NCBI GenBank assembly: GCA_043808285.1
Contig: JAZDFA010000007.1
Location: 129,187 to 193,186 of the forward strand
DNA from: an archaeon
GTDB lineage: Archaea; Nanobdellota; Nanobdellia; Pacearchaeales; DTIR01
Direction of reading: 5' to 3'
DNA: 64,000 nucleotides
In this document: positions 13,944-61,591 of the stretch, piece after piece
How the letters are laid out: every line of letters starts with the position of its first letter
How positions within the stretch are numbered: the first letter of the stretch is position 1
Notes under the pieces: generated by a model
What the model saw: only the letters and a program-made list of their open reading frames with translations
Database searches by the model: none
What the model was told of the DNA's origin: nothing
Made by a program: the position numbers and the translations under genes

Positions 13944-13996
13944 TTAATTAACGTTTTAGCAGTTATAGAGTAAGGCAGTTGATGGGTATTTTTAGG
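13944..13996 (-). repeat. Dispersed intergenic repeat (IGR family); the only inverted copy in the window
   Basis: The reverse complement reads CCTAAAAATACCCATCAACTGCCTTACTCTATAACTGCTAAAACGTTAATTAA. Confidence 0.7.
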
Positions 13997-14017
13997 GTAG
14001 GGATAAATGGAAAATCA

Positions 14018-14097
14018 TTTCTGCAAAACTAAGGGAAAAACAAATCTTCTAAGAACTAAAAACCTCTCCACCCCAGTCCTAACTTATAAAATTAAAC
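14018..14097 (+). repeat. Dispersed intergenic repeat (IGR family), degenerate forward copy
   Basis: TTTCTGCAAAACTAAGGGAAAAAC...CTAAAAACCTCTCCACCCCAGTCCTAACTTATAAAATTAAAC. Confidence 0.55.
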
Positions 14098-14131
14098 AAA
14101 GCTTTTTAAATAACAGAATATAAATTATATA

Positions 14132-14842
14132 ATGAAAAAGTTTATGTTAATAATTTTCTTCATCACCCTTGGGCTGATGCTATCACTTGGAGTACATGCA
14201 CAGAATTATGGAGAGAATAAAGATAATTCTAGTAAAAACAGTGATTATAAAATCGAAAATAAAACCCAGTACGAGAACAACTCCAATCACAACGAATCTG
14301 GACAGGGGAGTAATAATGAGACAAATAACAGCAGGGGTATTGGGCAGGAGTTAAGCGCCCAGATAAGAGAACTGAAAGGAGAACTTAAAGAAGGCAACTA
14401 TACAGGGTCTTTAGGCCAGCTTCTTAATGTAAAGCAGCTAAGTTCAGATCTTAGAGAGTTAAGAGTCAAAAATGTTTCTGCTGAGACTAATTTGAACGTA
14501 ACTAGGGAGCAGATTAATGAAAGAACAAAATTAACCGTTAAGTTAAATAATGGCAAAGAAAAAGAAATAAAGATAATGCCAGATACTGCATCTGAAAGAG
14601 CATTAGAATCACTAAAGTTAAATTCTTGTTCCTCAGAAAATAACTGCACAATTGTTTTGAAAGAGACTGGCGTTGGAACTAAAGATAATTCGATAAAATA
14701 TGAGATTCAGATAGAGAGGCATGCAAAGCTGCTAGGACTATTTAGAATTAAGATAGCAGAAAGAGCAGAAGTTGATGCAGAATCCGGAGATACAAAAGTA
14801 AAGAAGCCCTGGTGGGCATTTTTAGCAGTTGAAACCGAGTAA
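14132..14842 (+). CDS. Secreted or surface protein, Asn/Ser-rich N-terminal region
   Basis: 236 aa. It has an N-terminal signal-like hydrophobic segment (MKKFMLIIFFITLGLMLSLGVHA) and no recognisable domain. Confidence 0.45.
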   Translation: MKKFMLIIFFITLGLMLSLGVHAQNYGENKDNSSKNSDYKIENKTQYENNSNHNESGQGSNNETNNSRGIGQELSAQIRELKGELKEGNYTGSLGQLLNVKQLSSDLRELRVKNVSAETNLNVTREQINERTKLTVKLNNGKEKEIKIMPDTASERALESLKLNSCSSENNCTIVLKETGVGTKDNSIKYEIQIERHAKLLGLFRIKIAERAEVDAESGDTKVKKPWWAFLAVETE

Positions 14843-14866
14843 TATTCAGAATTCTTAAAAACACTT

Positions 14867-14957
14867 ATGTCACGTAAATTAACAACCCTCCAAAAGAAAA
14901 ACCCTGCTGCAAACTCCTAAAAATACTCCGCGTAACCTTATTCCTGTATTTAACAGG
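14867..14957 (+). repeat. Dispersed intergenic repeat (IGR family): a tail module plus one unit
   Basis: ATGTCACGTAAATTAACAACCCTCC is followed by CTGCAAACTCCTAAAAATACTCCGCGTAACCTTATTCCTGTATTTAACAGG. Confidence 0.7.
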
Positions 14958-15002
14958 CAATTTAATAATAAGCTTTATTAATAGATTTTTCAAGTGTTAT
15001 TC

Positions 15003-16711
15003 ATGAAAGTAGCGATAGTTCACAAGGACAAGTGCCTTCCGGAAAAATGTGCAAATCTCTGCGCAAGATTATGCCCGGTTAACCGCAAAGGCGAGAATTG
15101 CATAGAGATAAATGTGAAAGCAAAGATAGAGGAGACAGCATGCATAGGCTGCGGCATATGCCAAAATAGATGCCCTTTTGGCGCAATAAGCATCACTAAT
15201 CTTCCTTCTCAGCTGGACAAGAGCCTTTTTTACCGGTATGGGAAAAATGGATTCTGTCTTTATGGGCTTCCCACCCCAAAAGTGGGAGTTTTAGGATTAT
15301 TGGGCAGAAATGGTGTTGGAAAATCAACAGCATTGAATCTCCTTTCAGGAAAATTAAAAATAAATCTGGGACAGGACGAAGTATCAGATGAAAAAATAAG
15401 GCAGTTCTTGCAGGGTTCAGAGCTTTTGGGGTATTTTGACAATATCAATAATATTTCTTTTTCAGTAAAGCCTCAGAATCTTTCAGAAGTTGCAAAACAC
15501 GACCTTACTGGCCTGGAATTGATAAAAAAGTTTGGAGATGACAAAGAGATAGAGAATTTTTGTAATATGCTAAAGATTAATTTTCTAGACAGGAAGCTTG
15601 CGCAGCTTTCCGGTGGAGAGCTTCAAAAATTATCAATAGCAATTTGTGGCATGAAAAATCAGATGTATATCTTTTTGACGAGCCATCAGCATTCTTGGAT
15701 ATACAGGAAAGGCTTCGTGTTTGCGAGTTCATAGAGCATATTGCAAAGAAAAGCAAGGTAATTGTTGTAGAGCACGATTTGCTCATGCTAGATTACATGA
15801 CAGATTTCATAAACATATTTTATGGGGTTCAGGCATGCTACGGAATTGTCTCGGGGATAAAGCCTTCAAGAAGGGCAATAAATGATTACTTGGCTGGGCA
15901 ATTGCCTGAAGAGAATGTGAGATTTAGGGACAAGGAAATAAGCTTTAAGTTCATTCATTCAAGAGATGCAAGAAAGGAAGTAATAGCTTCATGGGATAAG
16001 TTCACTAAGACGTTTGAAAACTTCAAGATGGAGGCAGATGCTGGAAGCATACCCCTCAAGGGAATAGTGGGGATTGCAGGAAAAAATGGCACGGGAAAAA
16101 CAACTTTTGTGAAGTGCATTGCAGGAATAGAAAAAACTGACTTTGGCACTATTGATTTGAAGATGAAAGTTTCTTACAAGCCCCAGTACATCCAAGGTGA
16201 TGAAAGGCTTGTTGGGGAAGTTGTAAAGGAAGAAAGAATACCAAAAGCAATTGTTTCAGCTTTTTCAATGGAAGGTGTTATGACCAAGAAAACAAAAAAT
16301 CTTTCAGGGGGGGAACTTCAAAAATTGGCTATTGCATTATGCTTGTCAAAAGAAGCAGACCTTTACTTGCTTGATGAGCCCTCGGCTTTTTTGGATGTTG
16401 AAGAAAGGCTGCAGTCAGCAAAAACAATAAGGAGTATAATTGATGAGAAAGAGAAAGCTGCATTTATAGTAGAGCATGACTTGCTTTTCCTTAGCTATGT
16501 TGCAGATTCATTGGTTGTTTTCTCTGGAGAGCCCGCAAAGCATGGATTTGCACGCTCTCCAATTGAATTTACTCATGGGCTTAATGAGTTGATGAAGGAG
16601 CTTAATATAACAATAAGGAAGGACAAGGATTCTGGCAGGCCGAGGATAAACAAGAAGGATTCAGTTCTTGACAGGGAGCAGAAAGAAAAGGGGAAGTATG
16701 TTGAGCTGTGA
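15003..16711 (+). CDS. ABCE1 (RNase L inhibitor / ribosome recycling ATPase), interrupted by a 1-nt frameshift at an A5 run (15654-15658)
   Basis: The N-terminal 2x[4Fe-4S] cysteines are C..KC..LCARLCP and CIGCGICQNRCP. NBD1 has GRNGVGKST and LSGGELQK. After the shift come VYLFDEPSAFLD and NBD2 with GKNGTGKTT, LSGGELQK and LYLLDEPSAFLD. Track ORFs 14994..15734 and 15644..16711 are its two halves. Confidence 0.9.
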
Positions 16712-16738
16712 TTAATAAAAAAACAAAAAACTACTTCC

Positions 16739-16989
16739 TCTGCAAAACATTGATTAATAATTATTAATTTAGTGGGCGGCTTAAAGGTGGGGGGAAGCAA
16801 AGATGGGGCAGGTAAGGGATTCTAACAGGAAATTTTCTTGGATTTTTCTAGGATAAAAGAGAATTAGGGCTCAATGCCTATTTAAAAAATTCAAGTGTGA
16901 AAGAAAAAATCTTCTACAAACCCCTAAAAACCCACCACGTAACCCTGCCCCTATACTGCTAAAGAAGGATACAACAATTAACAACCTCC
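16739..16989 (+). repeat. Dispersed intergenic repeat (IGR family): a short unit plus a long unit
   Basis: TCTGCAAAACATTGATTAATAA, then TTTAGTGGGCGGCTTAAAGGTGGGGGGAAGCAAAGATGGGG...AATTCAAGTGTGAAAGAAAAAA...CACGTAACCCTGCCCCTATACTGCTAAAGAAGGATACAACAATTAACAACCTCC. Confidence 0.75.
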
Positions 16990-16997
16990 CAACAACT

Positions 16998-18272: not shown

Positions 18273-18386
18273 CTCTGAGGTACTTCCCTCACCTCTTTAT
18301 TTAACAGGTATCGAATATTTAAAAATCTAATGCCGTTTGAAGTTTCTTAGAGCAACCTTTATTAATGTGATTTCTTTTTTAAAAAT

Positions 18387-20093: not shown

Positions 20094-20095
20094 AG

Positions 20096-20601: not shown

Positions 20602-20656
20602 TCTGCAAAACCAAAGAAAGACTATTCTCAAGCCCTGCTCTGTATATGCTAAAAAA
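20602..20656 (+). repeat. Dispersed intergenic repeat (IGR family), forward copy
   Basis: TCTGCAAAACCAAAGAAAGACTATTCTCAAGCCCTGCTCTGTATATGCTAAAAAA. Confidence 0.55.
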
Positions 20657-21204
20657 TTATTTCTCGTATAAAGTCCCTTCTTTTTTTGCCTTGTGATAAT
20701 CATACAAAGTTCTCTCAATATCTCTTGCTTTGACATTCAGCTTTTTTGCATATCCTCTCAAGCTTTCAAGATAATCTCTCCAATTTCTAAAATTAAATCC
20801 AACTCCTGATGGCTTGCCATTCACAACACCATAAAGATGAAGTGTCTGCCAGACTCTTATGTCAATAACCCCATATCTCTTTGGGTCTGTCAATGCAAGT
20901 ATTGCTGAAGCCATTGGTATTGACACCCCCTGAGTTCTGTAAGCAGGTCTATCCTCTCTTGCTCATCCCTTGATGCAAACACTCTCCCAGATATCCTGGC
21001 TACTTTCTTAGGAGAATTGCTGATATACAATTGCTTTGGCCTGGGACTTTTCCACATGCAAATCCTTACGAACTCTTTTTTTGTGACATACCCCCTTTTT
21101 CTTGCATCAGTCAGTTCATTGATTATCCGTGCAGTCTTTGGCTCTTCCTGCTCATGGACATTTTCTCTCAAGAGAGCTTCAATATTATTATATTCCTTTT
21201 TCAT
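20657..21204 (-). pseudogene. Helix-hairpin-helix (DNA-glycosylase-like) protein split by a frameshift in a C5/G5 run (20926-20930)
   Basis: Track ORFs 20890..21204 and 20657..20926 are one gene. Adding one G to the run restores ..[29 protein letters not shown].., an L.GV....AS.IL HhH-type motif. Confidence 0.55.
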
Positions 21205-21279
21205 TCTTATTCCCTTAGAAAAAAGCTAAGGTGCTTATCACCCCTCTAAAAAATCATATATCTGGGATTTATAAATTTT

Positions 21280-22575
21280 TCAATTATCTTCAACAATCTT
21301 CCCATACAAATAATGGGGGGAAGTTTTCACAATCTCAACATCAACAAATTTTCCTAAGATATTTTTTCCATTGACTGCTATTAGGTTATAATCTTTATTT
21401 CTCGCCAGAAAAGTATCCTCAAATCCATGCTTGTCAACAATTGCTTTGCCATTCCAACCCAACATCTTGGCGCTTTCTTCCTTGCAGATTCCAAGATGCA
21501 GTTCTGAAATAACTTTTGCCCTCTTCTTAGACTCTTTTGCATTTATCCGCTTCAATCCAGAAGCTTCTGTATTTTTCATTGGCCAGAATCTGCTAAGGTT
21601 AAGAATTTGAGGTCTTATTTTTTTTATCAATTCAACTGTTTCATCAAAATCATCTTTGCTTTCTGTTGGATATGCAACAATGATGTCTGTTGATACAGTG
21701 ATAGTTGGAAATTCTTTGCGGAATGAATTTACTATTTTTGTGAAATTCTCTTTTGAATATCCTCTTTTCATTTCCTTCAAGACTTTATTGCTGCCAGACT
21801 GGATTGGGATGTGAAGGAACTTAAAAAATTTCTCATCACGGTAGCATTCTATCAATTCATCAAGAAATGGGAGAACATGATTTGGATTCATCATTCCCAG
21901 CCTTACATAGAACTTGCCTTTAAGGGAGAGTATTTCTTTAAGCAGTACTGGAAGCATGTATTTGCCGCTTTCAAGACCATATGCTGCATTATCCTGGGAG
22001 GTGAGCCATATTTCCTTGCACCCATTTGCAAGGTCATTTTTAATGTTCTTTATTATCTCTTCTTTAGGATAGCTGAATAATTCTCCCTTTGCCTGCCTTG
22101 TTATGCAGTAAGTGCATTTTCCAACGCATCCTTCAAGTATCTGTGTTATTCCTATAACGCTGCTTGAAGGAATCTTTGGGAGGCATAATTTAGGCTCATT
22201 AATCTTTCCAGTCATGAAAACTTTTTTGCCCTGGCTTATTTTCTTTACTGCATTTGCAATATTCTTAACATGATGGCTTCCCACAAATGATGAATTGGGA
22301 GCAATTTGAAGTATCTCTTTTGAAAAAACATCTGGCATGCATCCTGAAACTATAAACCTTGCACCAAATTTCTTTCCAATCTCCTTTACTCTTGAAAGCA
22401 TCTTTTCTTTTGTAGGACCTTTTACTATGCAAGTATTTAGTATTGCAAAATCAGCTATCTTGATGTTTTTCACAATAAAAAGCCCAGCCTGCCTAAGTAT
22501 GCCAGAGATTATCTCGGCATTGTTCTGATTGGCAGAACAGCCATACGTTTCGATGTAAACATTTTCTATCTGCAT
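21280..22575 (-). CDS. MiaB/MtaB-family radical SAM methylthiotransferase (archaeal/eukaryotic CDKAL1-like t6A37 type)
   Basis: 431 aa. It has an N-terminal UPF0004 domain (ETYGCSANQ), the radical SAM motif CVGKCTYC, and a C-terminal TRAM-like domain (GKFVDVEIV). Confidence 0.85.
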   Translation of the reverse strand: MQIENVYIETYGCSANQNNAEIISGILRQAGLFIVKNIKIADFAILNTCIVKGPTKEKMLSRVKEIGKKFGARFIVSGCMPDVFSKEILQIAPNSSFVGSHHVKNIANAVKKISQGKKVFMTGKINEPKLCLPKIPSSSVIGITQILEGCVGKCTYCITRQAKGELFSYPKEEIIKNIKNDLANGCKEIWLTSQDNAAYGLESGKYMLPVLLKEILSLKGKFYVRLGMMNPNHVLPFLDELIECYRDEKFFKFLHIPIQSGSNKVLKEMKRGYSKENFTKIVNSFRKEFPTITVSTDIIVAYPTESKDDFDETVELIKKIRPQILNLSRFWPMKNTEASGLKRINAKESKKRAKVISELHLGICKEESAKMLGWNGKAIVDKHGFEDTFLARNKDYNLIAVNGKNILGKFVDVEIVKTSPHYLYGKIVEDN

Positions 22576-22607
22576 GAAAAAAATGAAATAAGGAGATTAT
22601 TAAAATT

Positions 22608-23462
22608 TTACTTCTTGAATTTTGAAAGAGTCTGCCTGCTTATCTGGGATGCAAGAACTTTGTCTTTGTTTATTACAACCTTTATCTGGGCATCTTTCTC
22701 AAATATCTCTTTTATCATTGAATTGCAGTCAATTTCATCAACTCCAATTGCTTTTGCAAATGCATTGTCAAGCTTGTTTTTCAATTCAAGCGGAATGTAT
22801 ATCTGTATAACGAGGTCTCCAAACACCATTATCTCAGATGTTTCAGCGCATCTTACTCCAAGCTTTACATTTCCGCCTAGTTTGTTATAGAATTTTGATG
22901 CCCATCTGTCTATTGCGCAATCTCCCGAGCATAATGTGAAAACCTTATGCCCCATTTTTGCAAGCTGCCTCATCCAATTATACTCTGCCCTCAGGTAAAA
23001 AATGGGGCGCCACTCGTGGGAGTGGTGAAAGCAGATGTTTTCCTTCTGCTTTGAATTCGTTACATAATTCTTTTGAAGGTAATAGAGATATTTCTCAACA
23101 TCAAACCATGTCTTGAAGATAAAAACCCTGATTGCATCAGAATTGCCATCTTCTCGGTCAAATATTGCTGCCTGCTTTTCTGAAAAATAATTCACCCGGA
23201 TTATTTCTGTCTGGTTATGTATCTCCTTCACCCATTCAAGATTAAGAGTATAGCCTTCTTTTGTTTTAAGAAGTATTTTCCCATCAATCATCTGCATTAC
23301 AGCCTTGTAGACTGCTTGGTATGTGACTTTCTTTGCATGCTTCTTTCTTACGGCGTGATATATTTTTTTTATGCTTAGCGGCCAGTCATAGCTAAGAATA
23401 TTGACAATGATGTCTTTTGTAGAGCCTTCCTTGCTCCTATAGACTGAGATATCTGGATACAT
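22608..23462 (-). CDS. Hypothetical protein with an N-terminal winged-helix DNA-binding domain
   Basis: 284 aa. SIKKIYHAVRKKHAKKVTYQAVYKAVMQMIDGKILLK looks like a wHTH. The remainder is unassigned. Confidence 0.35.
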   Translation of the reverse strand: MYPDISVYRSKEGSTKDIIVNILSYDWPLSIKKIYHAVRKKHAKKVTYQAVYKAVMQMIDGKILLKTKEGYTLNLEWVKEIHNQTEIIRVNYFSEKQAAIFDREDGNSDAIRVFIFKTWFDVEKYLYYLQKNYVTNSKQKENICFHHSHEWRPIFYLRAEYNWMRQLAKMGHKVFTLCSGDCAIDRWASKFYNKLGGNVKLGVRCAETSEIMVFGDLVIQIYIPLELKNKLDNAFAKAIGVDEIDCNSMIKEIFEKDAQIKVVINKDKVLASQISRQTLSKFKK

Positions 23463-23538
23463 TCACTTTTTCATCCATTCAATATTTTAAACTTTTTGGT
23501 TAACTTTTTGATAACCTAAAGTATATTATCAAACATCC

Positions 23539-23826
23539 TTGAAGTGTATCATGAAAGAGGCATTTTTAAGATGCAGATATATGGAGGGGGGAATAGCATT
23601 CTTAGGAGAATACATGATAAAATTAAATACAGAAAAAGGAGAAAAGAACTGGTGCATAATAAACAAGGAAGATTTGATAAAACAGGATAATGAAAATGGC
23701 TTGGTAAAGGTCATTTCAGAGCCCTCGAACAAAAAAGGGAATATTCTTGTCGCAATAAACGACGTAGGAGATCATAGAATCTCTACTTTCTCTGTGCCTG
23801 AAACAGAAATAGTGGACATAGATTAA
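23539..23826 (+). CDS. Small protein translationally coupled to the downstream radical SAM gene
   Basis: 95-aa ORF, or 72 aa from the internal MIKLN. Its stop TAA (23824-23826) is 1 nt before ATG 23828. Confidence 0.3.
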   Translation: MKCIMKEAFLRCRYMEGGIAFLGEYMIKLNTEKGEKNWCIINKEDLIKQDNENGLVKVISEPSNKKGNILVAINDVGDHRISTFSVPETEIVDID

Positions 23827-23827
23827 A

Positions 23828-24691
23828 ATGTTTTTTCCACTGGATAAATATGAGGAGATAAAAGCGGGAAGGAGAAACACCCTGCAGATTTTTATAACTA
23901 ATAGGTGTAACCTCAATTGCATTGGATGTTTTGCAAAAAAGGTTATGAAAGAAAAGCAAAAGGACATCACAATAAAAGAGTATAGTTGGGCAGTAAATGA
24001 ATTCTTGAAAAAAGGCGGGGGGCAAATAAACCTCCTTGGCGGGGAGCCTCTGATGCATCCTAGATTAAGAGAGATAATAGAGATAAACAAGAAGAGGAAA
24101 ATAAAAACAACAATATACACAAATGGAATTATGCTTCCAAATTTTGGAGAAAAAGATTTACAAGGAGTAAAATTAAGAGTTTCAATTTATTGCAAGAACA
24201 AGGGAATCAAAAGTGCAGTTAAACTGCCCAAAACAAGCAGCAAAATAGAAGTCTGCTATATGATTTCAAAGAAAACTTCCCTAAAAGAGATGCTTGCCAG
24301 CGCTTATCACATAGAAAAGAATCACAATTGCAATGTTTTCTTCATATCAAGCATAAGGGAGCTAGACAACAAGAACAAAGAATTCTTTGAAGACACAGAC
24401 CTGACAATGAACCTGCTGAGATACAAAAGAATTGTCCACGAATTTCTCAAAGAATACAAGGGAAATATGCAAATTCACATATCAAAAAGAGGAGTATTCG
24501 AAAGCACAAAAAATCTGGCTGAAAACAAATGCAGGTTTGCAAATTATTTCATAGGCAAAAAAATAATACAATGCCCTTATGACACAATCAATCTGAAATT
24601 TCAAAAAAGCTACGAATTCAACAAGAGGCATTGCCAGCATAACAATACCTGCCTCATGAGCAAAATTATACTAAGAAAGATTGATAGGTAA
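23828..24691 (+). CDS. Radical SAM enzyme with a C-terminal Cys-rich region
   Basis: 287 aa. It has the CNLNCIGC (Cx3Cx2C) motif, GGEPLMHP, and C-terminal cysteines (C..(n)..C...C.....C). Confidence 0.75.
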   Translation: MFFPLDKYEEIKAGRRNTLQIFITNRCNLNCIGCFAKKVMKEKQKDITIKEYSWAVNEFLKKGGGQINLLGGEPLMHPRLREIIEINKKRKIKTTIYTNGIMLPNFGEKDLQGVKLRVSIYCKNKGIKSAVKLPKTSSKIEVCYMISKKTSLKEMLASAYHIEKNHNCNVFFISSIRELDNKNKEFFEDTDLTMNLLRYKRIVHEFLKEYKGNMQIHISKRGVFESTKNLAENKCRFANYFIGKKIIQCPYDTINLKFQKSYEFNKRHCQHNNTCLMSKIILRKIDR

Positions 24692-28608: not shown

Positions 28609-28911
28609 GTGAGATGTATGAAATGCCCAAATTGTAGAAACACAAATATTTCTAAAAGAGGATTTAGATATGACCAAATTGGAAAGAAACAGAGGTTTCT
28701 TTGTAATAAATGTGAAAAGACTTTTATTAAAAAAGATGGATTTGAAAGAATGAGGCATAAGAAAAGAGATATTGCAAGGGCAATACACCTCCATAATGAT
28801 GGTCTTTCTCTTTTTCAAATTCAAAATCATCTTTGGCAACATGATGGTGTAAAAGTAAGCAGAGAAACTGTAAGAGAATGGTGTGATAGATATTCTGTTT
28901 TTTTAAAATAG
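28609..28911 (+). CDS. IS6-family transposase, N-terminal zinc-finger/HTH part (frame A)
   Basis: A CPNC...(n)..CNKC zinc ribbon is followed by LSLFQIQNHLWQHDGVKVSRETVREWCDRY, which resembles the IS26 Tnp N-terminal HTH. It ends at TAG 28909-28911 right after T7A4. Confidence 0.75.
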   Translation: MRCMKCPNCRNTNISKRGFRYDQIGKKQRFLCNKCEKTFIKKDGFERMRHKKRDIARAIHLHNDGLSLFQIQNHLWQHDGVKVSRETVREWCDRYSVFLK

Positions 28912-29539
28912 GATAAGAAAAATTGTTAAGCCAAAAATTAAAGGAGGCATTCATTATGATGAAAAATACATTAAAGTTAATGGAAAAGAGAATTATGATT
29001 TGAATGCTATTGATAACAAAACCAAGTTTGTTTTAGCTCATTTGTTCGTCGAGAAACGAACAAAACAGAAATGTTATGAATTTCTAAAGCAGATAAAAGA
29101 TTCTTGTTACCATCAAATAATCGAAACTTACAATCAAGAAAAGCATAAGAAAGTTGAGGATAGAAAATTAATAAATTTTGTTTGTGATAAATTTGCAGGT
29201 TATAAATCTGCTTTTAGTAGAAATTTTTATAGAATTGCAAATTTGTCTTTTGGAGTTCCAATTGCTTGTAAAAAATATGGATTAGAGCATAACAATAATC
29301 CAATTGAGAGATACAATGGAAAAATAAAAGATAGGATGAATGGGATGAGAAAAGGTTTTGGTAGTTTTTCAGGAGCAGAAAATTTTATGAATTTGCAATG
29401 TGTAATTCATAACTTTGTAAATCCCCATCAGGAATTGAAAGATAAAACTCCTGCAGAAATGGCAGAAATAGTTTTACCCTTAGGAAGAAATAAGATACTA
29501 GGATTAGCGAGATATTTGGTTAATGTCCCGTTAATCTGA
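28910..29539 (+). CDS. IS6-family transposase, DDE catalytic part (frame A+1)
   Basis: The frame is open from 28910. HYDEKYIKVNG...LNAIDNKTK, VCDKFAGYKSAF and NNNPIERYNGKIKDRM..GFGSF align with DETYVKVNG, NTDKAPAY and NNVIECDHGKLKRI..GFKS of IS26-type transposases. Confidence 0.8.
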   Translation, partial: RIRKIVKPKIKGGIHYDEKYIKVNGKENYDLNAIDNKTKFVLAHLFVEKRTKQKCYEFLKQIKDSCYHQIIETYNQEKHKKVEDRKLINFVCDKFAGYKSAFSRNFYRIANLSFGVPIACKKYGLEHNNNPIERYNGKIKDRMNGMRKGFGSFSGAENFMNLQCVIHNFVNPHQELKDKTPAEMAEIVLPLGRNKILGLARYLVNVPLI

Positions 29540-31423: not shown

Positions 31424-31476
31424 CCAAATCCAAGGAAAGTCCCATCCTATCTGCTAAATAACCACGTCAATTAAAA
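31424..31476 (+). repeat. Dispersed intergenic repeat (IGR family), forward copy
   Basis: CCAAATCCAAGGAAAGTCCCATCCTATCTGCTAAATAACCACGTCAATTAAAAG. Confidence 0.6.
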
Positions 31477-33377: not shown

Positions 33378-33443
33378 TCTTCCAAAACCAAAAATTATAT
33401 TGAGCCACCTTACTCCTAACTGCTAAAATGTCACGTTAATTAG
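33378..33443 (+). repeat. Dispersed intergenic repeat (IGR family), forward copy
   Basis: TTCTTCCAAAACCAAAAATTATATTGAGCCACCTTACTCCTAACTGCTAAAATGTCACGTTAATTAG. Confidence 0.75.
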
Positions 33444-33483: not shown

Positions 33484-33638
33484 TATTACCGCACCTTAAA
33501 AGGTGCGGTTTGTGTGTTTTTTGGATGCAAGGAAATTCTTTTGAATTTCCGGCACAGAAAATCCAGTAAGATTTTCTTGTGCTCAAGAACACGCGACTAC
33601 ACACTTTAAATGTGTAGTTTTAGTCAAGTGTTCTTGAC
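33484..33638 (-). mobile_element. Hairpin MITE-like element, copy C (longer variant, minus orientation)
   Basis: On the minus strand it starts after TTAT with GTCAAGAACACTTGAC...CGCGTGTTCTTGA. Further hairpins follow (CTACACA..TGTGTAG, GAAAATC..GATTTTC, GGAAATTC..GAATTTCC, CCGCACCTT..AAGGTGCGG). It ends in ..GCGGTAATAC. Confidence 0.6.
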
Positions 33639-33676
33639 ATAAAAAAATTAATAAATGCCAGTTGGTTAGCCCATGA

Positions 33677-35381: not shown

Positions 35382-35452
35382 TCTGCAAAAAAAGAAAAAA
35401 TAATTTCGTTGCCCTACTCCTAACTACTAAAGCGGGAATACCTTTGATTAAA
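35382..35452 (+). repeat. Dispersed intergenic repeat (IGR family), forward copy (GCGGGAATAC variant)
   Basis: TCTGCAAAAAAAGAAAAAATAATTTCGTTGCCCTACTCCTAACTACTAAAGCGGGAATACCTTTGATTAAA. Confidence 0.7.
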
Positions 35453-37222: not shown

Positions 37223-37293
37223 GATGCAAAACCCTAAAAATATTCTTCGTAACCCTACACCTATACTGCTAAATGTCACGTGAATTAACAACC
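37223..37293 (+). repeat. Dispersed intergenic repeat (IGR family), forward copy
   Basis: GATGCAAAACCCTAAAAATATTCTTCGTAACCCTACACCTATACTGCTAAATGTCACGTGAATTAACAACC. Confidence 0.8.
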
Positions 37294-37312
37294 ATTCGTA
37301 AAAAGATAAATT

Positions 37313-37387
37313 ATTTCTGTAAAAACAAGAAAATCCACTAGTGAGCCTTACTCCTACACTGCTAAAATGTCACGTCAATTAACAACC
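37313..37387 (+). repeat. Dispersed intergenic repeat (IGR family), forward copy
   Basis: ATTTCTGTAAAAACAAGAAAATCCACTAGTGAGCCTTACTCCTACACTGCTAAAATGTCACGTCAATTAACAACC. Confidence 0.8.
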
Positions 37388-37409
37388 CCCCAAAAAACAT
37401 TTTTCTTAT

Positions 37410-37493
37410 GTCAAGAACACTTGAAAAAACTCGCGTGTTCTTGATCATTCTAAAGTTGTTGTGTGCAGACAATAACACTTAACAACTTTATAA
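37410..37493 (+). mobile_element. Hairpin MITE-like element, copy B
   Basis: It starts after TTAT (37406-37409). The stems are TCAAGAACAC..GTGTTCTTGA and TAAAGTTGTT..AACAACTTTA. It is collinear with copy A at 7859-7939. Confidence 0.65.
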
Positions 37494-38692: not shown

Positions 38693-38768
38693 TTTCTCTT
38701 TTGTCTGTATATAATGCAGCAGTGATTTAAATAAATTTATATCCCTATTAATAATCTAATAAAGTGTT

Positions 38769-38841
38769 GGGGCCGTAGTATAGCCTGGTAGTATCCAAGG
38801 TTCGGGGCCTTGTGACCTGCGTTCGAATCGCAGCGGTCCCA
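38769..38841 (+). tRNA. tRNA-Pro (anticodon CGG)
   Basis: GGGGCCG-TA-GTAT..GTAT-C-CAAGG-TTCGGGG-CCTTG-TGAC-CTGCG-TTCGAAT-CGCAG-CGGTCCC-A. The T loop is canonical and G37 is present. CCA is not encoded. Confidence 0.85.
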
Positions 38842-38855
38842 TATTTCAGTTTTTA

Positions 38856-38931
38856 TCTGCAAAAAAAGAAACTACAATTAGTAAGCCTTATTCTATTAAC
38901 ACCTAAAGCGGGAATACAGTAATTAACAATC
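38856..38931 (+). repeat. Dispersed intergenic repeat (IGR family), forward copy (GCGGGAATAC variant)
   Basis: TCTGCAAAAAAAGAAACTACAATTAGTAAGCCTTATTCTATTAACACCTAAAGCGGGAATACAGTAATTAACAATC. Confidence 0.7.
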
Positions 38932-40092: not shown

Positions 40093-40148
40093 AATTTGTC
40101 AGAAAAAACAATTAGGTAACCTTAATTTAGATATTAATTATTCATTTC

Positions 40149-40361
40149 TTCGTGGTCAAGGGTTAATGGGGTAAAGGCAGCAAAGATGAGTGAGGACAAG
40201 ACACTGGGAAAAAATTCTTTTCTGGATTATTTTTAGTAAGATGAATTATAGAGTCATTCGTATTAAAACAATTCAAGTGTGAAAAAACATAATCTGCAAA
40301 TCCAAAAAATACTCTGCGTAACCTTGCTCCTAACTGCTTGATTTCACGTTGATTAACAATC
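40149..40361 (+). repeat. Dispersed intergenic repeat (IGR family), long forward copy
   Basis: ..GTGGTCAAGGGTTAATGGGGTAAAGGCAGCAAAGATGAG...AATTCAAGTGTGAAAAAACATAATCTGCAAATCC...GCGTAACCTTGCTCCTAACTGCTTGATTTCACGTTGATTAACAATC. Confidence 0.75.
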
Positions 40362-40397
40362 TTCCTTAAAGAAAAATTAATGATTATCAATCTCTAT

Positions 40398-43601: not shown

Positions 43602-44225
43602 TTATTGTTTAACAAGAGATTCAAGGCTATTTTCTCTCTTTGCTCCATTGTGTTCTTCGTTTCCTGCCGATTTATTAACATCAGTTATAAAAACCGCAGC
43701 AGCAATTACAGTAGTCCATAAATCCCCCTTTGGCACTTCTGCTGACTGGCATATATGTGTTGTCTTGAATATATGCCCAGATGCCTTGTATATCTGTTCT
43801 CTTTCTTTCCATGCCTTATCCGGGTCAAATTCTACTCCCAGTGTTGTTGCAAGCATTGTTGCAGCCAAGTCTTCTGCATATTCTCCCGCTTCATCAGCTG
43901 TCTTGCCCTCGCCATGATATTCAGATAAGTATCCATATTGCCTGTCTCTTGCCTTTGGCACAGCAACTCCAAGTGCGGCAGATATAAGCCTATTTCGTTT
44001 GTCTGCAGATATGCGTGCCATGACGCAGTAAGTTATATCTCCTGGCTCAAGCAGTTGTATTCCTCTTTCTCTGGTTATTATCTGGCAATTTGGCGGCAGA
44101 ATGCTTGAAACATAAACAAGATTGCATTTTTCTATGCCTGCTTTTCTTAATGCAAGTTCAAATGAACCCAACCCTTCCTTATGGATTCCATACCCTTTTG
44201 TAAAGAATACTTTTTTTGGTGCCAT
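43602..44225 (-). CDS. pdaD: Pyruvoyl-dependent arginine decarboxylase, paralog 1
   Basis: 207 aa. [35 protein letters not shown] contains the self-processing Ser-Ser site. Confidence 0.85.
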
Positions 44226-44233: not shown

Positions 44234-44848
44234 CTATATCTTTTTAACTTCTACTTTAATGTTATTTTTATTGCTATTCTCATCCTTAGAATCAATTATA
44301 AAAACTGCTGCTGCAATACAAGTAGTCCAGAGTCCCTCTTTATTTCCTGTTGCAGACTGGCATATGTTTGTTGTCTTGAATATATGCTTAGATGCCTTGT
44401 ATATCTTTTCTCTTTCTTTCCATGCCTTATCCGGGTCAAATTCTACTCCCAGTGTTGTTGCAAGCATTGTTGCAGCCAAGTCTTCTGCGTACTCTCCTGC
44501 TTTTTCGTCTGTCTCGCCGCAGGAATGATGCTCTGATAAATATCCATACTGACTAGCTCTTGCCTTTGGCACAGCAACTCCAATTGCAGATGCTACTAAT
44601 CTATTTGGTTCATTTGTTTCATTCTTTGCCATTACGCAAAATGTTATCTGTCCAGGCTCAAGCAGTTTAATTCCGTTTTTCTTAGGTATTATCTGGCAAT
44701 TTGGCGGCAGAATGCTTGAAACATAAACAAGATTGCATTTTTCTATTCCTGCATTTCTTAATGCTTTTTCAAATGATGCAAGCTTGTTTTTGTCTACGCC
44801 TACTCCTTTTGTAAGGAACATTTTTGTAGGCAATATTTGTGAATACAT
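44234..44848 (-). CDS. pdaD: Pyruvoyl-dependent arginine decarboxylase, paralog 2
   Basis: 204 aa. It has the same signature ([38 protein letters not shown]). It sits in tandem with paralog 1. Confidence 0.85.
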
Positions 44849-44996: not shown

Positions 44997-45070
44997 TTTC
45001 TGCAAGACAAAACAATCATTTCTTCACCTTACTCCTAACACCTAACAGCAGGAAATACAAATATTAACAA
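44997..45070 (+). repeat. Dispersed intergenic repeat (IGR family), forward copy
   Basis: TTTCTGCAAGACAAAACAATCATTTCTTCACCTTACTCCTAACACCTAACAGCAGGAAATACAAATATTAACAA. Confidence 0.7.
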
Positions 45071-45105: not shown

Positions 45106-45128
45106 TATCGATATGCAAAAATTAACAT

Positions 45129-45204
45129 AGCGGGGTGGAGCAGCCAGGAGTGCTCGCAGGGCCCATAACCCTGAGGTCGTGTGGTTCAAATCCCACCCCC
45201 GCTA
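45129..45204 (+). tRNA. Initiator tRNA-Met (anticodon CAU)
   Basis: The AGCGGGG..CCCCGCT acceptor stem has an A1:U72 pair. The anticodon arm CAGGG-CCCATAA-CCCTG has three consecutive G:C pairs. The T loop is TTCAAAT. The T stem GTG(T)GG/CCCAC needs one bulged U. Confidence 0.8.
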
Positions 45205-45212
45205 CTTTTAAA

Positions 45213-55282: not shown

Positions 55283-55303
55283 TTGCTATGTGAAGGAAAA
55301 AAT

Positions 55304-55378
55304 CTTACTGCAAAACTAAGAAAAGTCCCATCCCTTCTGCCCCACTCTATATCTGCTTGATTTCACTACTATTAATAA
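55304..55378 (+). repeat. Dispersed intergenic repeat (IGR family), short forward copy
   Basis: CTTACTGCAAAACTAAGAAAAGTCCCATCCCTTCTGCCCCACTCTATATCTGCTTGATTTCACTACTATTAATAA. Confidence 0.7.
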
Positions 55379-55602
55379 AAAGATAATTTAGCGGTCGTCT
55401 AAGGTTTTTTTGGAAAGAGAAGATGGAGGGAGTAATGATTCTTTGGGATTTTCTTGGATTTTGGAGGGTAAGAGGTGAATCTGAGTTATGCCTAAAAACA
55501 ATTCAAGTGTGAAAGAAAAAAACCAATCTGCAAATCCCATAACTACAATTCGTAAGCCTTACTCTATAACTCCTAAACTGAATACAACAATTAACAACCT
55601 CC
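55379..55602 (+). repeat. Dispersed intergenic repeat (IGR family), long forward copy
   Basis: AAAGATAATTTAGCGGTCGTCTAAGG...AATTCAAGTGTGAAAGAAAAAAACCAATCTGCAAATCCC...TTCGTAAGCCTTACTCTATAACTCCTAAACTGAATACAACAATTAACAACCTCC. Confidence 0.8.
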
Positions 55603-55644
55603 ATATTCCAAAAATATTAAATAAGAGATAAAATATAATCAAAT

Positions 55645-55926
55645 ATGGACCTTAAGGAGATACAAAAAACAGTAAAGAGAAGAATAAATCTTTATGTTTC
55701 TCTTTACAAGGATAAAAGAACTCCATTAATTTCTAAGGTATTTTTATGGATTGCAATTGGATATTTTTTCCTGCCATTTGATTTAATTCCAGATTTCATT
55801 CCAATCTTAGGGCAGCTTGATGACCTGATTATTGTTTCTGGTTTTATTTTTCTCTCGTTGAGGTTTATTCCTAAAAAGGTGTATGATGAGAATTATAGAA
55901 AAGTGTTTGGCAAAAGAATTAAATAA
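55645..55926 (+). CDS. DUF1232 (YkvA-like) membrane protein
   Basis: 93 aa. It has the hallmark DLIPDFIPILGQLDDLIIV. Confidence 0.7.
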   Translation: MDLKEIQKTVKRRINLYVSLYKDKRTPLISKVFLWIAIGYFFLPFDLIPDFIPILGQLDDLIIVSGFIFLSLRFIPKKVYDENYRKVFGKRIK

Positions 55927-55946
55927 CCAGATAATATTATCTTATT

Positions 55947-56162
55947 ATGGTTAAAGAATCAAAAAAAGTGGCGGAAGTCAAGTGCAAAACATCTGCGGGG
56001 TGCGGACCTTCTGGCGCAGTTTACGGCTTAGGGTTTATTGGTGCTGCAATCTATTTCATTGGAAAAGCAACAACATTCTGGGCTGGCGTCTTAGGATTTT
56101 TTAAAGCAATGGTTTGGCCTGCATTTTTAGTCTATGAGGCGCTGAAATATTTGAAGATTTAG
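55947..56162 (+). CDS. Small membrane protein
   Basis: 71 aa with two hydrophobic helices. Confidence 0.35.
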   Translation: MVKESKKVAEVKCKTSAGCGPSGAVYGLGFIGAAIYFIGKATTFWAGVLGFFKAMVWPAFLVYEALKYLKI

Positions 56163-56211
56163 GAACTTGAGTTAGCGGGTTTGGGGAAGAAGGGAAGAAA
56201 AAGAATTAATC

Positions 56212-58350: not shown

Positions 58351-58491
58351 TCATTCATTAATCAGTTTAAATAATTTGTTTTTGTCCCGTCGATTATTTC
58401 TTTGGAGAGTATAAAAATCAATTCTAAGTTAGAAAAACCGAAATATTTATAAACCACCTTTGTAGAATATTTTTAATTAATCAAATAAAAA

Positions 58492-59784
58492 ATGGCGAGA
58501 GAAAAACCAAATTTCAATGTTATTTTTGTAGGTCATGTAGACCATGGCAAGAGTACAGCAATCGGAAGATTGTGGTATGAATCAGGGAAGCTGCCAGAGC
58601 AAGAGCTTCAAAAATTAAAGGACGAAGCAGCAAGGCATGGCAAGGTTGGTTTTGAATTCGCATTCGTTATGGACAAATTCAAGGAAGAGAGAGAAAGAGG
58701 AGTTACAATTGACCTTTCTTATAAGAAACTAATTACTAAAAACTTTGAAATGACAATAATCGATGCTCCTGGTCATAAGGACTTCGTAAAGAACATGATA
58801 ACAGGCGCATCTCAAGCAGATGGTGCAGTACTAGTCGTTGCATGCCAGCATGGTGTAATGGCACAGACAAAGGAACATATATGGTTATGCAGAACAATGG
58901 GTGTTGGTCAAATGGCTGTATTAATCAATCAGATGGACACAGTAAATTATGATGAAGACAAATACAATAAGGTAAAAGCAGACTTATCTGTTCTGTTAAA
59001 GACTGCAGGTTTTAACCCTGATAAGATAAACTTTATTGCAGGTTCAGGTTTCAAGGGAGACAACATAACAAAGAAGAGCGCAAATATGGCTTGGTACAAG
59101 GGACCAACAGTACTTGAGCAATTCGACTTATTCACTCCTCCTGAAAAGCCAACTGAATTACCATTAAGAATGCCTATTCAAGATGTTTATGAAATCACCG
59201 GTATCGGAACTGTTCCAGTAGGAAAGATAGAGACTGGAATAATGAAGAACGGACAGAAAGTAATAATCTTGCCTGGAAGGACCGGAGCAGGAATAAATGG
59301 CGAAATAAAGACAATAGAAATGCATCATGAGACATTGACTGAAGCCATGGCAGGAGATAATGTTGGTATAAACATAAGAGGAGTTGGGAAGAAAGACCTA
59401 GCAAGAGGGGATGTAATCTGCGATGCAGCAAATCCACCATGTGTAGTTGAGGAATTTACAGCTCAAATAGCAGTAATCAATCATCCAACAGTAATTGCCA
59501 AAGGTTACACACCAGTATTCCATATTCACACTGCACAAGTACCTTGCCAGTTTATTGAATTGATAAAGACAATTGATTCTAAGACAGGACAAACTTCCAA
59601 GGAAAATCCAGACTTTTTAAAGAATGGAGATGTTGCACAAGTCAAGATAAAGCCAATGGGCAATCTTGTTCTTGAAAAGCAGTCAGTAAATCCTCATATG
59701 GCAAGATTCGCTATAAGAGACGCTGGCCAGACAGTTGCAGCAGGAATATGCACAGATTTAATTGCCAAGAAGATCGGCAAGTAA
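58492..59784 (+). CDS. tuf: Translation elongation factor EF-1 alpha
   Basis: 430 aa. It has [17 protein letters not shown] and NQMD, and the archaeal/eukaryotic-type N-terminus. Confidence 0.95.
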
Positions 59785-59901
59785 GTATTTTCTTTTATTT
59801 TTTATTAGTAATTAATAAATAAAGATTTATCAAAAAAACAAAATTGAAGTTTTGTTTTTAGGATCTTAAAAACCCACAATAAAACAAGAGGTTTTTATGA
59901 T

Positions 59902-60047
59902 GCAGGTTTTTAGGGATTTTTATTCCTAACCTGATGATCTTTTGATATTTTGCTCTGTCCCCATATAACCTCAATTCTTCAAAACAAATAAAAAGTCCCA
60001 TCCAACTGCCTGACTCTATAACTGCTAGATTTCTGTTAATTAATAAT
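59902..60047 (+). repeat. Dispersed intergenic repeat (IGR family), extended short unit
   Basis: GCAGGTTTTTAGGGATTTTTATTCCTAACCTGATGATC...TCAATTCTTCAAAACAAATAAAAAGTCCCATCCAACTGCCTGACTCTATAACTGCTAGATTTCTGTTAATTAATAA is collinear with 61244-61370. Confidence 0.75.
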
Positions 60048-60252
60048 AGTTAATTTAGCGGTCGCCTAGAGAAGGTTGGGGGCAGCAAAGATGGGTAAGT
60101 GGGGGGAATGTATGGGACAAATCTTAGGCAGAATTTGAAGATGTGGGCGGAGAATCTGTGTCATGCGTAAAGAAAAATAATTCATAAAAAGAAAACCCCA
60201 TGCGTAACCTTACTTCTATACTGCTAAGGCAGGGATACAACAATTAACAACC
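60048..60252 (+). repeat. Dispersed intergenic repeat (IGR family), long forward copy
   Basis: TAGTTAATTTAGCGGTCGCCTAGAGAAGGTTGGGGGCAGCAAAGATGGG...ATGCGTAAAGAAA...CATGCGTAACCTTACTTCTATACTGCTAAGGCAGGGATACAACAATTAACAACC. Confidence 0.8.
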
Positions 60253-60466
60253 AGATAGTTAGAAGTTCTGTTACCATTACTAAGTAATTAAAAAAAGAAA
60301 GATTTAAATACTACCTATGCCTATACATATTATCACCTCTTTTACCCGGGAGAGGCTTAAATCGGTGCGTCTTTTAGATTGCTGATTTAACCTCTCTTAG
60401 GGTTTCATACTATCATTACATCTTATTAAACAAAAAAGAGTTATAAGGAGGTAAAAAACAACAAAA

Positions 60467-60832
60467 ATGAAAAACTTAAAACAAATCACTGAAAATATAG
60501 CTAATAATGAAATTGCTGCTGAATTAGCAGAAGCAAAAGCTGAGTATAAACAAGCAATAAAAGAGTACAATAAATCTCTAGTTGGCACATATGGAAGTTA
60601 TGCTCTGTCCTTAGGTATTATTACTACAGGTATTTATTTCGCAGGACAAGCGGCAACTGACCTTGGTCCTAATACCCCTCAAGGGATTGCAATTCCTTTA
60701 TTTATAATAATGGCTAGTTCCTCTGTATTTGCACCGATTTTTGGTTCAAATATTTTATACCATAGTGAAAAAGCAAGGTACTTAAATTCAAAGAAAAAAG
60801 ACCTTGTTGCAAAACTTGAGGCAGCTAAATAA
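60467..60832 (+). CDS. Hypothetical membrane protein
   Basis: 121 aa. An N-terminal amphipathic helix is followed by two hydrophobic helices. It shares its first seven codons with the next gene. Confidence 0.4.
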   Translation: MKNLKQITENIANNEIAAELAEAKAEYKQAIKEYNKSLVGTYGSYALSLGIITTGIYFAGQAATDLGPNTPQGIAIPLFIIMASSSVFAPIFGSNILYHSEKARYLNSKKKDLVAKLEAAK

Positions 60833-60833
60833 A

Positions 60834-61190
60834 ATGAAAAACTTAAAACAAATTATAGGAACAGGAATGATGGCTTTAGCTTTGCCTGCAGTATTAGCTG
60901 GATGCGGCAATGATAAGACAACTGGAAAAAGCAATAGCACAGGTTATGCTAAATCAAGTCCTGCATACACAATTACAGTAAAAAGTGGAGATAACCTTTC
61001 ATTTTATCTTGGAAAAGAAGGCTATCCAATAGACCTTAATATGTATACTAAAGTTGTAAAGGCATTGAACTATGACAACAAGCAGGCATTTGTAAACTAT
61101 GACGGTGGTCAGATAAGAGACAACAGGGAAATATTATTGCCAGACCTTAATAATGATGGCAAGGTTGGCGGCAAGACAGGAAAAAGATAA
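60834..61190 (+). CDS. Putative lipoprotein
   Basis: The start is moved to ATG 60834 (MKNLKQIIGTGMMALALPAVLAGC), which gives a lipobox-like signal peptide. The track ORF starts at 60804. Confidence 0.5.
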   Translation: MKNLKQIIGTGMMALALPAVLAGCGNDKTTGKSNSTGYAKSSPAYTITVKSGDNLSFYLGKEGYPIDLNMYTKVVKALNYDNKQAFVNYDGGQIRDNREILLPDLNNDGKVGGKTGKR

Positions 61191-61243
61191 GCTTTTTTCT
61201 TTTTTTTATATTTTATTAATTTATTTAATAAGCAAAGACTAAT

Positions 61244-61370
61244 GCAGATTTAGGATATTATTCCTAAACTGCTCATCTTTGGTCATATTTATTATCAATT
61301 CTTCAAAACCAATAAATCACTCCTCCTTCTGCCCTATTCCTGTACTGCTTGATACAGCATTAATTAATAA
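61244..61370 (+). repeat. Dispersed intergenic repeat (IGR family), extended short unit
   Basis: GCAGATTTAGGATATTATTCCTAAACTGCTCATC...TCAATTCTTCAAAACCAATAAATCACTCCTCCTTCTGCCCTATTCCTGTACTGCTTGATACAGCATTAATTAATAA. Confidence 0.75.
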
Positions 61371-61591
61371 AAAGATAAGTTAGCTGCTCAGTTGGGGTGC
61401 GGGGGGTAGAGAAGATGGGTGAGGACAAGATTACTAAGAAAAATTTTTTTGGATTGTTCTGGGTAAGAGGAGAATTTGAGCAATGCGTAAAGAAACAATT
61501 GATAACAAAAGAAAAAACATCTGCAAAACAAAAAGAAAAACAATTCGTAAGCCCCACTCTATAACTGCTAAACAGAATACAACAATTAAAG
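61371..61591 (+). repeat. Dispersed intergenic repeat (IGR family), long forward copy
   Basis: AAAGATAAGTTAGCTGCTCAGTTGGGGTGCGGGGGGTAGAGAAGATGGG...ATGCGTAAAGAAA...CATCTGCAAAAC...TTCGTAAGCCCCACTCTATAACTGCTAAACAGAATACAACAATTAAAG. Confidence 0.8.

Follow-up and report, generated by a model that had tools for sequence, protein, structure and literature searches.

A dispersed intergenic repeat family with regional strand polarity in a 64-kb stretch of a Pacearchaeote genome

Dispersed intergenic repeats are well known in bacteria; the genomes of DPANN archaea are very small and tightly packed, and for these archaea we found no description of such a family in the open-access literature. The DNA analysed here, called the window throughout, comprises 64 kb of one genome (contig JAZDFA010000007.1) of a Pacearchaeote (DPANN, Nanoarchaeota), and its spacers hold about 20 copies of a unit of about 70 nucleotides (nt), which point one way to the right of 14.0 kb and the other way to its left. 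What are these repeats, how did they come to lie in so many spacers, and what decides the strand on which they lie? We give about even chances to the explanation that they are lineage-specific non-autonomous DNA elements, once mobile and perhaps mobile still, that colonised the spacers after the split from the closest known relatives. The host assignment agrees with the EF-1alpha of the window, which is MFH1249006.1 (100% identical) and is 79% identical to its best GTDB species representative, the top matches being all from Pacearchaeota or Woesearchaeota.

The original prediction had proposed a dispersed intergenic family, and such a family is real: all 19 intervals listed for it contain a member, a repeat search recovers several overlapping direct-repeat families at the same places, and an nhmmer profile built from the listed copies re-detects them at E-values from 1e-6 to 1e-14, the weaker members being 14019-14090 (E 0.012), 31445-31476, which is a partial copy (E 0.05), and 14867-14887, an orphan tail. 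After iteration of the profile the inventory stands at 21 units in 17 spacers, with no copy inside an open reading frame (ORF). The claim that almost every spacer longer than 150 bp carries the repeat was overstated (right of 14 kb, 12 of 18 such spacers do), and in place of a single inverted copy there are three, at 3008-3046, 7753-7800 and 13943-13996, all left of 14.0 kb and two of them outside the interval first described. The genes flanking the repeats are ordinary chromosomal ones, among them those for ArgRS, IleRS, EF-1alpha, ABCE1, TatD, CofD, DUF763, a UvrD-type helicase and RuBisCO. The copies are as follows, F16 to F61 being the five long composites and L093, L095 and L106 three sister contigs compared below.

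3008-3046, minus strand: partial unit, head and core, inverted (nhmmer E 7e-4)
7753-7800, minus strand: inverted unit with the GCAGGAATACA..ATTAG type of tail (nhmmer E 0.03-0.3)
13943-13996, minus strand: inverted unit, its tail ..CTGCTAAAACGTTAATTAAC fused directly to the left end of an insertion sequence (IS) (nhmmer E 1.8e-6)
14019-14090, plus strand: diverged unit, head-to-head with the 13943-13996 copy (nhmmer E 0.012)
14867-14956, plus strand: orphan tail (14867-14887), then a tail-less unit (14907-14956) (E 3e-6)
16739-16990, plus strand: composite F16, with a decayed first unit, G-rich block, middle segment and terminal unit (F-profile E 1e-62)
20602-20657, plus strand: tail-less unit in a convergent spacer (nhmmer E 4e-8)
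31424-31476, plus strand: partial unit; the sister genes overlap at the same spacer (L106 empty site) (nhmmer E 0.05)
33378-33443, plus strand: unit in a divergent spacer (nhmmer E 1e-11)
35382-35451, plus strand: unit in the DUF763-VIT1 spacer (nhmmer E 3e-9); L106 site empty
37225-37384, plus strand: two tandem units, 37225-37290 and 37316-37384 (nhmmer E 3e-13 and 1e-13)
38856-38928, plus strand: unit starting 14 nt past tRNA-Pro (nhmmer E 1.5e-8)
40105-40365, plus strand: composite F40 (F-profile E 4e-51)
44999-45069, plus strand: unit ending 59 nt upstream of tRNA-Met (45128-45205) (nhmmer E 2e-7)
55300-55603, plus strand: composite F55, with a first unit, AT-rich linker, G-rich block, middle segment and terminal unit (F-profile E 7e-78)
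59902-60253, plus strand: composite F59, 5' hairpin at 59903-59933 (F-profile E 1e-65); empty site in L093 and L095
61244-61597, plus strand: composite F61, 5' hairpin at 61244-61272 (F-profile E 2e-74); empty site in L093 and L095

The reverse complement of 7753-7800 reads ..CACCTAAAGCAGGAATACAATGATTAG, resembling the copies at 35382 and 38856. The tRNA-Pro(CGG) gene, at 38768-38842, was found by an Rfam run on E-values and by ARAGORN, and was missed at the Rfam gathering threshold.

A complete unit opens with a head box, continues through a variable A-rich stretch and the core, and closes with a tail that ends in AATTAAC(AACC). Over its roughly 70 nt it reads TCTGCAAAA, the A-rich stretch, CGTAAsCCTTACTCTATA(A)CTGCTAA, 6-14 variable nt and AATTAACAAcc, and the 75% consensus of the units is TCTGCAAAAccaaaAAAa..Ca.T.CgtaaCCtTACTCcta.ACTgCTAAaa.a.tAC.t.aATTAAcA. 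The basic unit is G-poor, unstructured and non-palindromic: no hairpin was found in single units, whose folds as single-stranded DNA (ssDNA) range from 0 to -0.9 kcal/mol and are worse than those of shuffles (z +0.5 to +1.4). Terminal inverted repeats are likewise missing, the head TCTGCAAAA not being complementary to the tail AATTAACAA and no inverted-repeat pair bracketing the units. Pairwise identity between units has a median of 62% and a maximum of 85%, and four boxes (TCTGCAAAA, CCtTACTC, ACTgCTAA and ATTAAC) are kept nonetheless; judged by the median identity, the copies are old. Units lie between a stop codon or terminator and the following promoter, at varying distances from the adjacent genes, and their 5' boundaries are fuzzy. 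Inspection revealed no conserved target motif 5' of the units, the left boundaries being blurred and the empty sites of the sisters too distant for junctions to be read; a phase-shifted unit starting after TTAAC was rejected, TTAAC being inconsistent in the 5' flanks.

The strong strand bias that had been reported holds in a sharper form. Right of 14.0 kb all 18 units lie on the plus strand, which under a 50:50 expectation has a probability of about 4e-6, and left of it all three lie on the minus strand, a perfect segregation of 3 versus 18 whose probability is 1/1330. Plus copies are found in spacers of the (+,+), (+,-) and (-,+) classes (right of 14 kb, in 7 of 8 (+,+), 4 of 8 convergent and 3 of 10 divergent spacers), and in the same region 11 of the 16 spacers downstream of plus-strand genes carry a plus copy. 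No minus copy stands downstream of any minus-strand gene in the window; left of 14 kb, the minus copies lie between plus-strand genes and are antisense to the plus-strand genes upstream of them. This tally by spacer class confirms that the orientation of the repeat is independent of the direction of its neighbours, as had been claimed. Since orientation does not follow the genes, polarity is a property of the chromosomal region, flipping once at about 14.0 kb. The further claim that the repeat is not simply a promoter or terminator of the adjoining genes is supported by the same tally together with a promoter matrix (AAAGnTTTAAATA) learned from 44 upstream regions of this genome, which matches the window at 78 places, all of them outside the units and composites.

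Left of the switch, between 1984 and 13257, the window encodes DUF5678, HEPN/nucleotidyltransferase pairs, a Schlafen-type helicase, a MazG-like gene and a RiboL-PSP HEPN gene, a defence or accessory block that may be a mobile or rearranged island. In the same region a stretch of 120-170 nt from the 3' end of ORF 4130-5020 (4794-4963) recurs with 71-74% identity at 7803-8053, in the 7707-8148 spacer and adjoining the inverted repeat unit there; this duplication is probably what the original prediction called a nuclease relic.

Where did the copies come from? Five orthologous spacers could be compared in the three sister contigs, and at all of them the sisters are short and empty, the spacers of the window being larger by roughly 90-600 bp. 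Downstream of EF-1alpha, the spacers measure 77/143 bp and about 62 bp (45-143 bp overall) in L093 and L095, whose EF1A is 87-88% identical to that of the window, versus 682 and 472 bp in the window, and each of these two enlarged spacers holds one composite. L106, with a DUF763 gene product 68% identical, is syntenic with the window from ArgRS to VIT1; its MGMT and methylase genes overlap where the window has a 94-bp spacer containing a unit, and its DUF763-VIT1 spacer measures 30 bp versus 171 bp in the window, where the inserted DNA extends on its right as far as the common promoter AAATTTATAAATAATT. With the elements absent at five sites in three independent sister contigs, the parsimonious reading is that the copies are lineage-specific insertions gained in the lineage of the window.

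The wider comparison points the same way. The unit profile has no match in the three sister contigs, nor in the 1.3 Mb of 92 loci, related Pacearchaeota and Woesearchaeota as well as loci bearing a Y1 transposase, and the family was not found in the total of 1.5 Mb of related and other DNA compared. A scan of metagenome contigs with a pattern matching four window copies gave only eight matches, at chance level, and the collections of phages, plasmids and viruses (the viral contigs in two scans) gave chance matches only and no family member. The one other repeat-rich locus is L073 (Pacearchaeota SO_2017_SWC_18, JBAZOZ010000011.1), which between 400 and 15160 carries unrelated dispersed short-hairpin repeats, for example GGAAAAC..GTTTTCC, with at least 6 copies in 21 kb and nearly all in one orientation; most related loci are without dispersed repeats, and we rejected the idea that oriented spacer repeats are general in Pacearchaeota. 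The comparison with L106 also shows a rearrangement: a MiaB-like radical-SAM gene (window 20657-24691, with extra ORFs around it) is inverted relative to L106 184-1992, and the left breakpoint of this inversion coincides with the repeat unit at 20602-20657, which forms the left edge of the inverted segment.

Could the copies be inert debris, that is, immobile and functionless relics of a decayed gene or of segmental duplications? Their age, divergence and fuzzy 5' boundaries would suit such an origin, as would the presence of other relic duplications in the window (4794-4963 versus 7803-8053). Against it stand the spread of 21 units over 17 separate spacers with unrelated flanks, the perfect polarity, the conserved boxes and the empty sites in the sisters. 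By inspection, moreover, no reading frame is common to the copies, since the frames read contain stop codons and the copies differ by indels, and the decayed gene relics that had been offered as an alternative thus left no sign. We regard this origin as very unlikely.

A serious rival, because the boxes are conserved, is a polar cis-element that would have spread by some route and be kept by host selection, either DNA bound by a chromosomal protein with a role in replication, segregation or insulation, or an RNA element in transcripts reading through from genes upstream. In its favour are the four boxes, kept although elsewhere the unit has drifted to about 62% identity, the strictly intergenic placement between stop codon or terminator and next promoter, the regional polarity and the frequent plus copies downstream of plus-strand genes right of 14 kb. 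The element is, however, absent from all relatives examined, so that sisters with the same genes do not need it, its spacing to neighbouring genes is variable, left of 14 kb its copies run antisense to the plus-strand genes upstream of them, and no candidate binding protein is evident. On balance we judge such a cis-element unlikely, and both inert relics and the small-RNA genes considered below less likely than it.

Small RNAs come into question with the long copies. The five that had been predicted are confirmed and align with one another across about 250-300 nt (F-profile E 1e-51 to 1e-78), with mutual identities of 55-68%. Each has a further unit, more or less decayed, in front of it, and once this is included the full element measures about 260-350 nt instead of the 200-250 bp first given. 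In full, a composite runs from a first unit through an AT-rich linker, a G-rich block and a middle segment (ATGCsTA..AATTCAAGTGTGAAAG) to a terminal unit, the G-rich block, which pairs in part with the first unit, thus standing between two direct units. The two subfamilies into which the long copies had been divided are not discrete, ATGCsTA..AACAATTCAAGTGTGAAAG being one segment that has diverged in two copies. Two of the five composites have significant 5' hairpins (F59, z -3.9; F61, z -5.2); pairing of the first unit with the G-rich block gives z of -2.7 and -3.05 in F59, is seen in F61 on the plus strand only (z -2.35) and is not found in F55 (z +0.9). The composite hairpin is thus not a conserved property.

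If the copies were small RNA genes, with RNAs of about 200 nt from the long copies and of 45-70 nt from the short ones, on either strand, the 5' hairpins of F59 and F61 would fit, and so would the hairpin between first unit and G-rich block of F61, which as RNA is stable only from the plus strand (z -2.35 versus -0.27), suggesting G·U pairs. Yet Rfam gives no match even at E up to 5, single units are unstructured, F55 has no hairpin, the promoter matrix scores no site inside any unit or composite, and a uniform regional orientation is not expected of a gene family. A consensus fold by RNAalifold on the five composites reaches only -5.9 kcal/mol with a covariation term of +0.08, so that no signal of compensatory substitutions is seen, the five long copies giving this comparison low power. 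The small RNA family that had been suggested as an alternative is therefore unsupported by match, conserved fold or promoter, and we hold it to be about as improbable as inert debris.

Returning to lineage-specific mobile elements, how would they have acquired one direction over so much of the window? Insertion would be strand-specific, most likely using a single DNA strand that the replication fork leaves exposed, as in IS200/IS605 elements. The polarity would then report the direction of the fork, an origin, a terminus or an inversion breakpoint would lie at the flip, and the conserved boxes would probably be recognition sites for a protein that moves or binds the element. A single-strand mechanism is the most economical explanation for an absolute regional polarity, because strand-specific insertion at replication forks is established for IS200/IS605 (PMC5027513) and this clade has an active element of that family. 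IS200/IS605 is the most widespread IS family in archaea (PMC13343696), and one member, which went unnoticed in the original prediction, sits in the window exactly at the polarity switch.

13237-13942, minus strand: intact 706-bp IS200/IS605 element with tnpA only, its ends placed by aligning copies in different contexts

The tnpA gene (13276-13761, minus strand) encodes 161 amino acids from the ATG at 13761, and the protein matches Pfam Y1_Tnp (E 1.2e-22) and NCBIfam transpos_IS200 (79.8 bits, cutoff 55), with both the HUH motif, which reads HIH, and the tyrosine, in NYILNQ, intact. As a REP-associated tyrosine transposase (RAYT; REP, repetitive extragenic palindromic) it fails, scoring 30.7 against a cutoff of 80 with NCBIfam REP_Tyr_transpos. 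Metagenomes contain hundreds of clusters of transposases 70-91% identical to it, some of them named as Nanoarchaeota IS200/IS605 transposases, and it is an ordinary protein of the IS200 type, multi-copy in relatives, and not a RAYT; one identical homologue occupies at least four unrelated contexts.

The left end of the IS (TAAGAAGAAATCCCCAGCCTTTAGGCTGG..) abuts the repeat at 13943, and the right end finishes ..GGGTGGGGAGGATGTCAT. Alignment of copies gives a left end of TAAGAAGAAATC followed by a CCCAGCC-TTTA-GGCTGG hairpin and a right end of ..GGGTG(G/C)GGAGGATGTCAT, and in the right-end hairpin the changes between relatives are compensatory (CCCCAC/GTGGGG versus CCGCAC/GTGCGG). In most contexts the left flank is ..TTAAC, in one ..ATAAT, and TTAAC is the probable target. 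In the window the IS lies immediately 3' of AATTAAC in the tail of 13943-13996, on the same strand as the repeat, and the direct joining of its left end to the tail ..CTGCTAAAACGTTAATTAAC indicates that the repeat tail supplied the target. Base composition predicts about 250 TTAAC per 64 kb, of which about 20 fall in repeat tails; landing in a tail thus has a chance of about 8%, which makes it weak evidence for a special link between IS and repeat. The repeat flanks the transposase on one side only, and homologues have their own ends.

The resident enzyme, which would use the TTAAC of the tail as its insertion target, is the only candidate mobiliser in view. It could make the family an archaeal counterpart of REP/RAYT, or of the palindrome-associated transposable elements (PATEs) or MITEs (miniature transposable elements with inverted repeats) derived from IS200/IS605, moved in trans as ssDNA by the Y1 enzyme of 13276-13761. 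What speaks for this is a transposase with intact HUH (HIH) and tyrosine motifs at the polarity switch, the common strand of the IS and the adjoining repeat, with the IS left end joined to the TTAAC of the repeat, the strand polarity expected from ssDNA transposition, and the inverted partial units within composites, as in REPINs. The ends, on the other hand, are unrelated: a BLAST search of the window with 175 nt of the left and 75 nt of the right end of the IS matches only the IS itself, and a likeness between the G-rich block and the right end that had been seen by eye was rejected when BLAST and nhmmer showed nothing significant. The units, folding at 0 to -0.9 kcal/mol, have no subterminal hairpin, no conserved 5' target motif was seen by inspection, the landing in a tail may be chance, the protein passes the IS200 model and misses the RAYT cutoff, and its identical homologue in at least four contexts behaves as an ordinary multi-copy IS. 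Only Y1 proteins of the IS200 type were found in Archaea in a 2018 survey (PMC6006769). In addition, one sample of the sister clade, from the project that also yielded L106, contains a 91%-identical transposase, and contig L106 has no repeats. Because the units lack end hairpins, the ends are unrelated, the enzyme is of the typical IS200 type and a 91%-identical one turns up in the project of the repeat-free contig L106, the resident TnpA is probably not the mover of the repeats, and mobilisation in trans by it seems to us quite unlikely. Of the HUH/Y1 mobilisation first put forward, then, the polarity stands and a Y1 transposase has been found at the flip; hairpins in the units, kinship with the IS ends and a RAYT have not, and the sister contigs examined lack the repeat while a sample of the sister clade has a 91%-identical transposase.

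A broader proposal is that the repeats are a new archaeal class of ssDNA-mobilised elements that need no hairpin and insert into one template strand at the fork, moved by a Y1/HUH enzyme, resident or elsewhere in the genome; we consider it improbable to a similar degree. If true, it would be the first REP/RAYT-like system of host and element in Archaea, and the orientation of the copies would be a readout, from sequence only, of replichore structure in an uncultivated DPANN archaeon.

Several observations weigh against once-mobile elements whose direction reports replication. No mobilising gene with matching ends was found in the window, and a host-selected cis-element would explain conservation in blocks at 62% identity just as well. 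After correction for coding strand, third-position GC skew is about zero on both sides of the flip, and no orc1/cdc6 gene is among the genes of the window. The polarity pattern comes from this one window, and its minus block from three copies, two of them weak, in a region that resembles accessory or defence DNA. Finally, with the closest relatives as distant as they are (EF1A 87-88%, DUF763 68%), exact boundaries, a target-site signature and polymorphic insertion are not recoverable.

How does the family compare with known systems? In the case of the bacterial REP sequences, the bacterial interspersed mosaic elements (BIMEs) that they form and the REPIN-RAYT systems, the likeness lies in short, high-copy, strictly intergenic and genome-specific repeats that occur as singlets and as composite clusters with inverted partners. 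REP/BIME and REPIN systems are associated with HUH/Y1 enzymes (PMC3333891, PMC3116915, PMC6006769), and REP/RAYT systems are reported only in bacteria. REPs, however, are imperfect palindromes of 20-40 nt with a GTAG or CGTC tag, alternating in orientation in BIMEs, whereas the units here measure about 70 nt, are non-palindromic and uniformly oriented, and contain CGTAA in their consensus but not at the foot of a stem. The Y1 enzyme of those systems is a RAYT, expected to be single-copy with flanking inverted repeats; the enzyme here is of the IS200 type, and neither expectation holds for it. With IS200/IS605 elements and their derivatives the family shares the lack of terminal inverted repeats, and a member of that group is inserted in a repeat tail; it differs in having no subterminal hairpins and no similarity to the ends of the resident IS, and by inspection its 5' flanks, with their blurred boundaries, show no shared target motif. 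PATEs, for their part, are non-autonomous IS200/IS605 derivatives of haloarchaea and cyanobacteria. A MITE of the DDE type would require terminal inverted repeats, which these units do not have.

The pneumococcal BOX element (boxA-boxB-boxC) and the enterobacterial repetitive intergenic consensus (ERIC) form stable stem-loops and occur in both orientations. They resemble the present family in being modular in varied combinations, intergenic and lineage-specific, with no mobiliser encoded nearby, and differ from it in that single units here are unstructured and polarity is absolute within a region. Arrays of integron attC sites, which have been reported in Archaea too, offer uniformly oriented recombination sites after successive genes and strand-specific recombination of ssDNA; the units here, in contrast, have no R''-L''/L'-R' palindrome or hairpin (attC cores read RYYYAAC..GTTRRRY), and the genes between them are housekeeping genes on both strands, syntenic with the sisters. 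No integrase was found in Pfam scans of 68 of the longer ORFs of the window. On anatomy we rejected integron attC, a DDE-type MITE, C/D-box or H/ACA sRNA, a tRNA-derived element and a coding relic. Because the defining tests (palindrome, subterminal hairpins, RAYT, terminal inverted repeats) fail, the family is best classed as dispersed, lineage-specific, non-autonomous intergenic repeats, functionally nearest to REP/BIME/REPIN, to IS200/IS605-derived elements and to BOX. It is unusual in lacking secondary structure, in having a polarity that is absolute over a region and in living in a DPANN host.

The window has other features of interest. A second small repeat is a strong palindrome, TCAAGAACAC..GTGTTCTTGA nested in GTCAAG..CTTGAC, present at 7852-7907, 37403-37458 and, inverted, 33570-33652; two of its copies are 93% identical, each lies 20-140 nt from a repeat unit, and they stand upstream of xseA, a GGDEF gene and a 92-aa ORF. 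Its appearance is that of an operator or of a hairpin element in its own right. A probable transposase of the IS6/IS240 family, on the plus strand at 28609-29539, is split into two ORFs, one with a zinc-finger-like N-terminal part (28609-28911) and one matching DDE_Tnp_IS240 (29000-29539; E 9e-6, just below the Pfam cutoff), and lies between the genes for IleRS and CofD, which are adjacent in L106. ABCE1/RLI, on the plus strand at 14994-16711, consists of two overlapping ORFs in different frames (14994-15734 and 15644-16711); the gene is an essential one, and the split reflects either a frameshift that made it a pseudogene or an error in assembly. A pyruvoyl-dependent arginine decarboxylase gene is tandemly duplicated on the minus strand (43602-44225 and 44234-44848, with 83-86% DNA identity over 450 nt) and adjoins arginase-family, saccharopine-dehydrogenase-like and carboxynorspermidine-decarboxylase-like genes, in what looks like a polyamine cluster.

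All together, at the five sites compared the repeat accounts for a large part of the difference between the window and its relatives, and an IS200/IS605 element is linked here to a repeat that supplies its target site. Should the polarity prove local or accidental, this would be an ordinary lineage-specific repeat family; if it tracks replication, origins and termini could be mapped in unculturable organisms that offer no usable GC skew.

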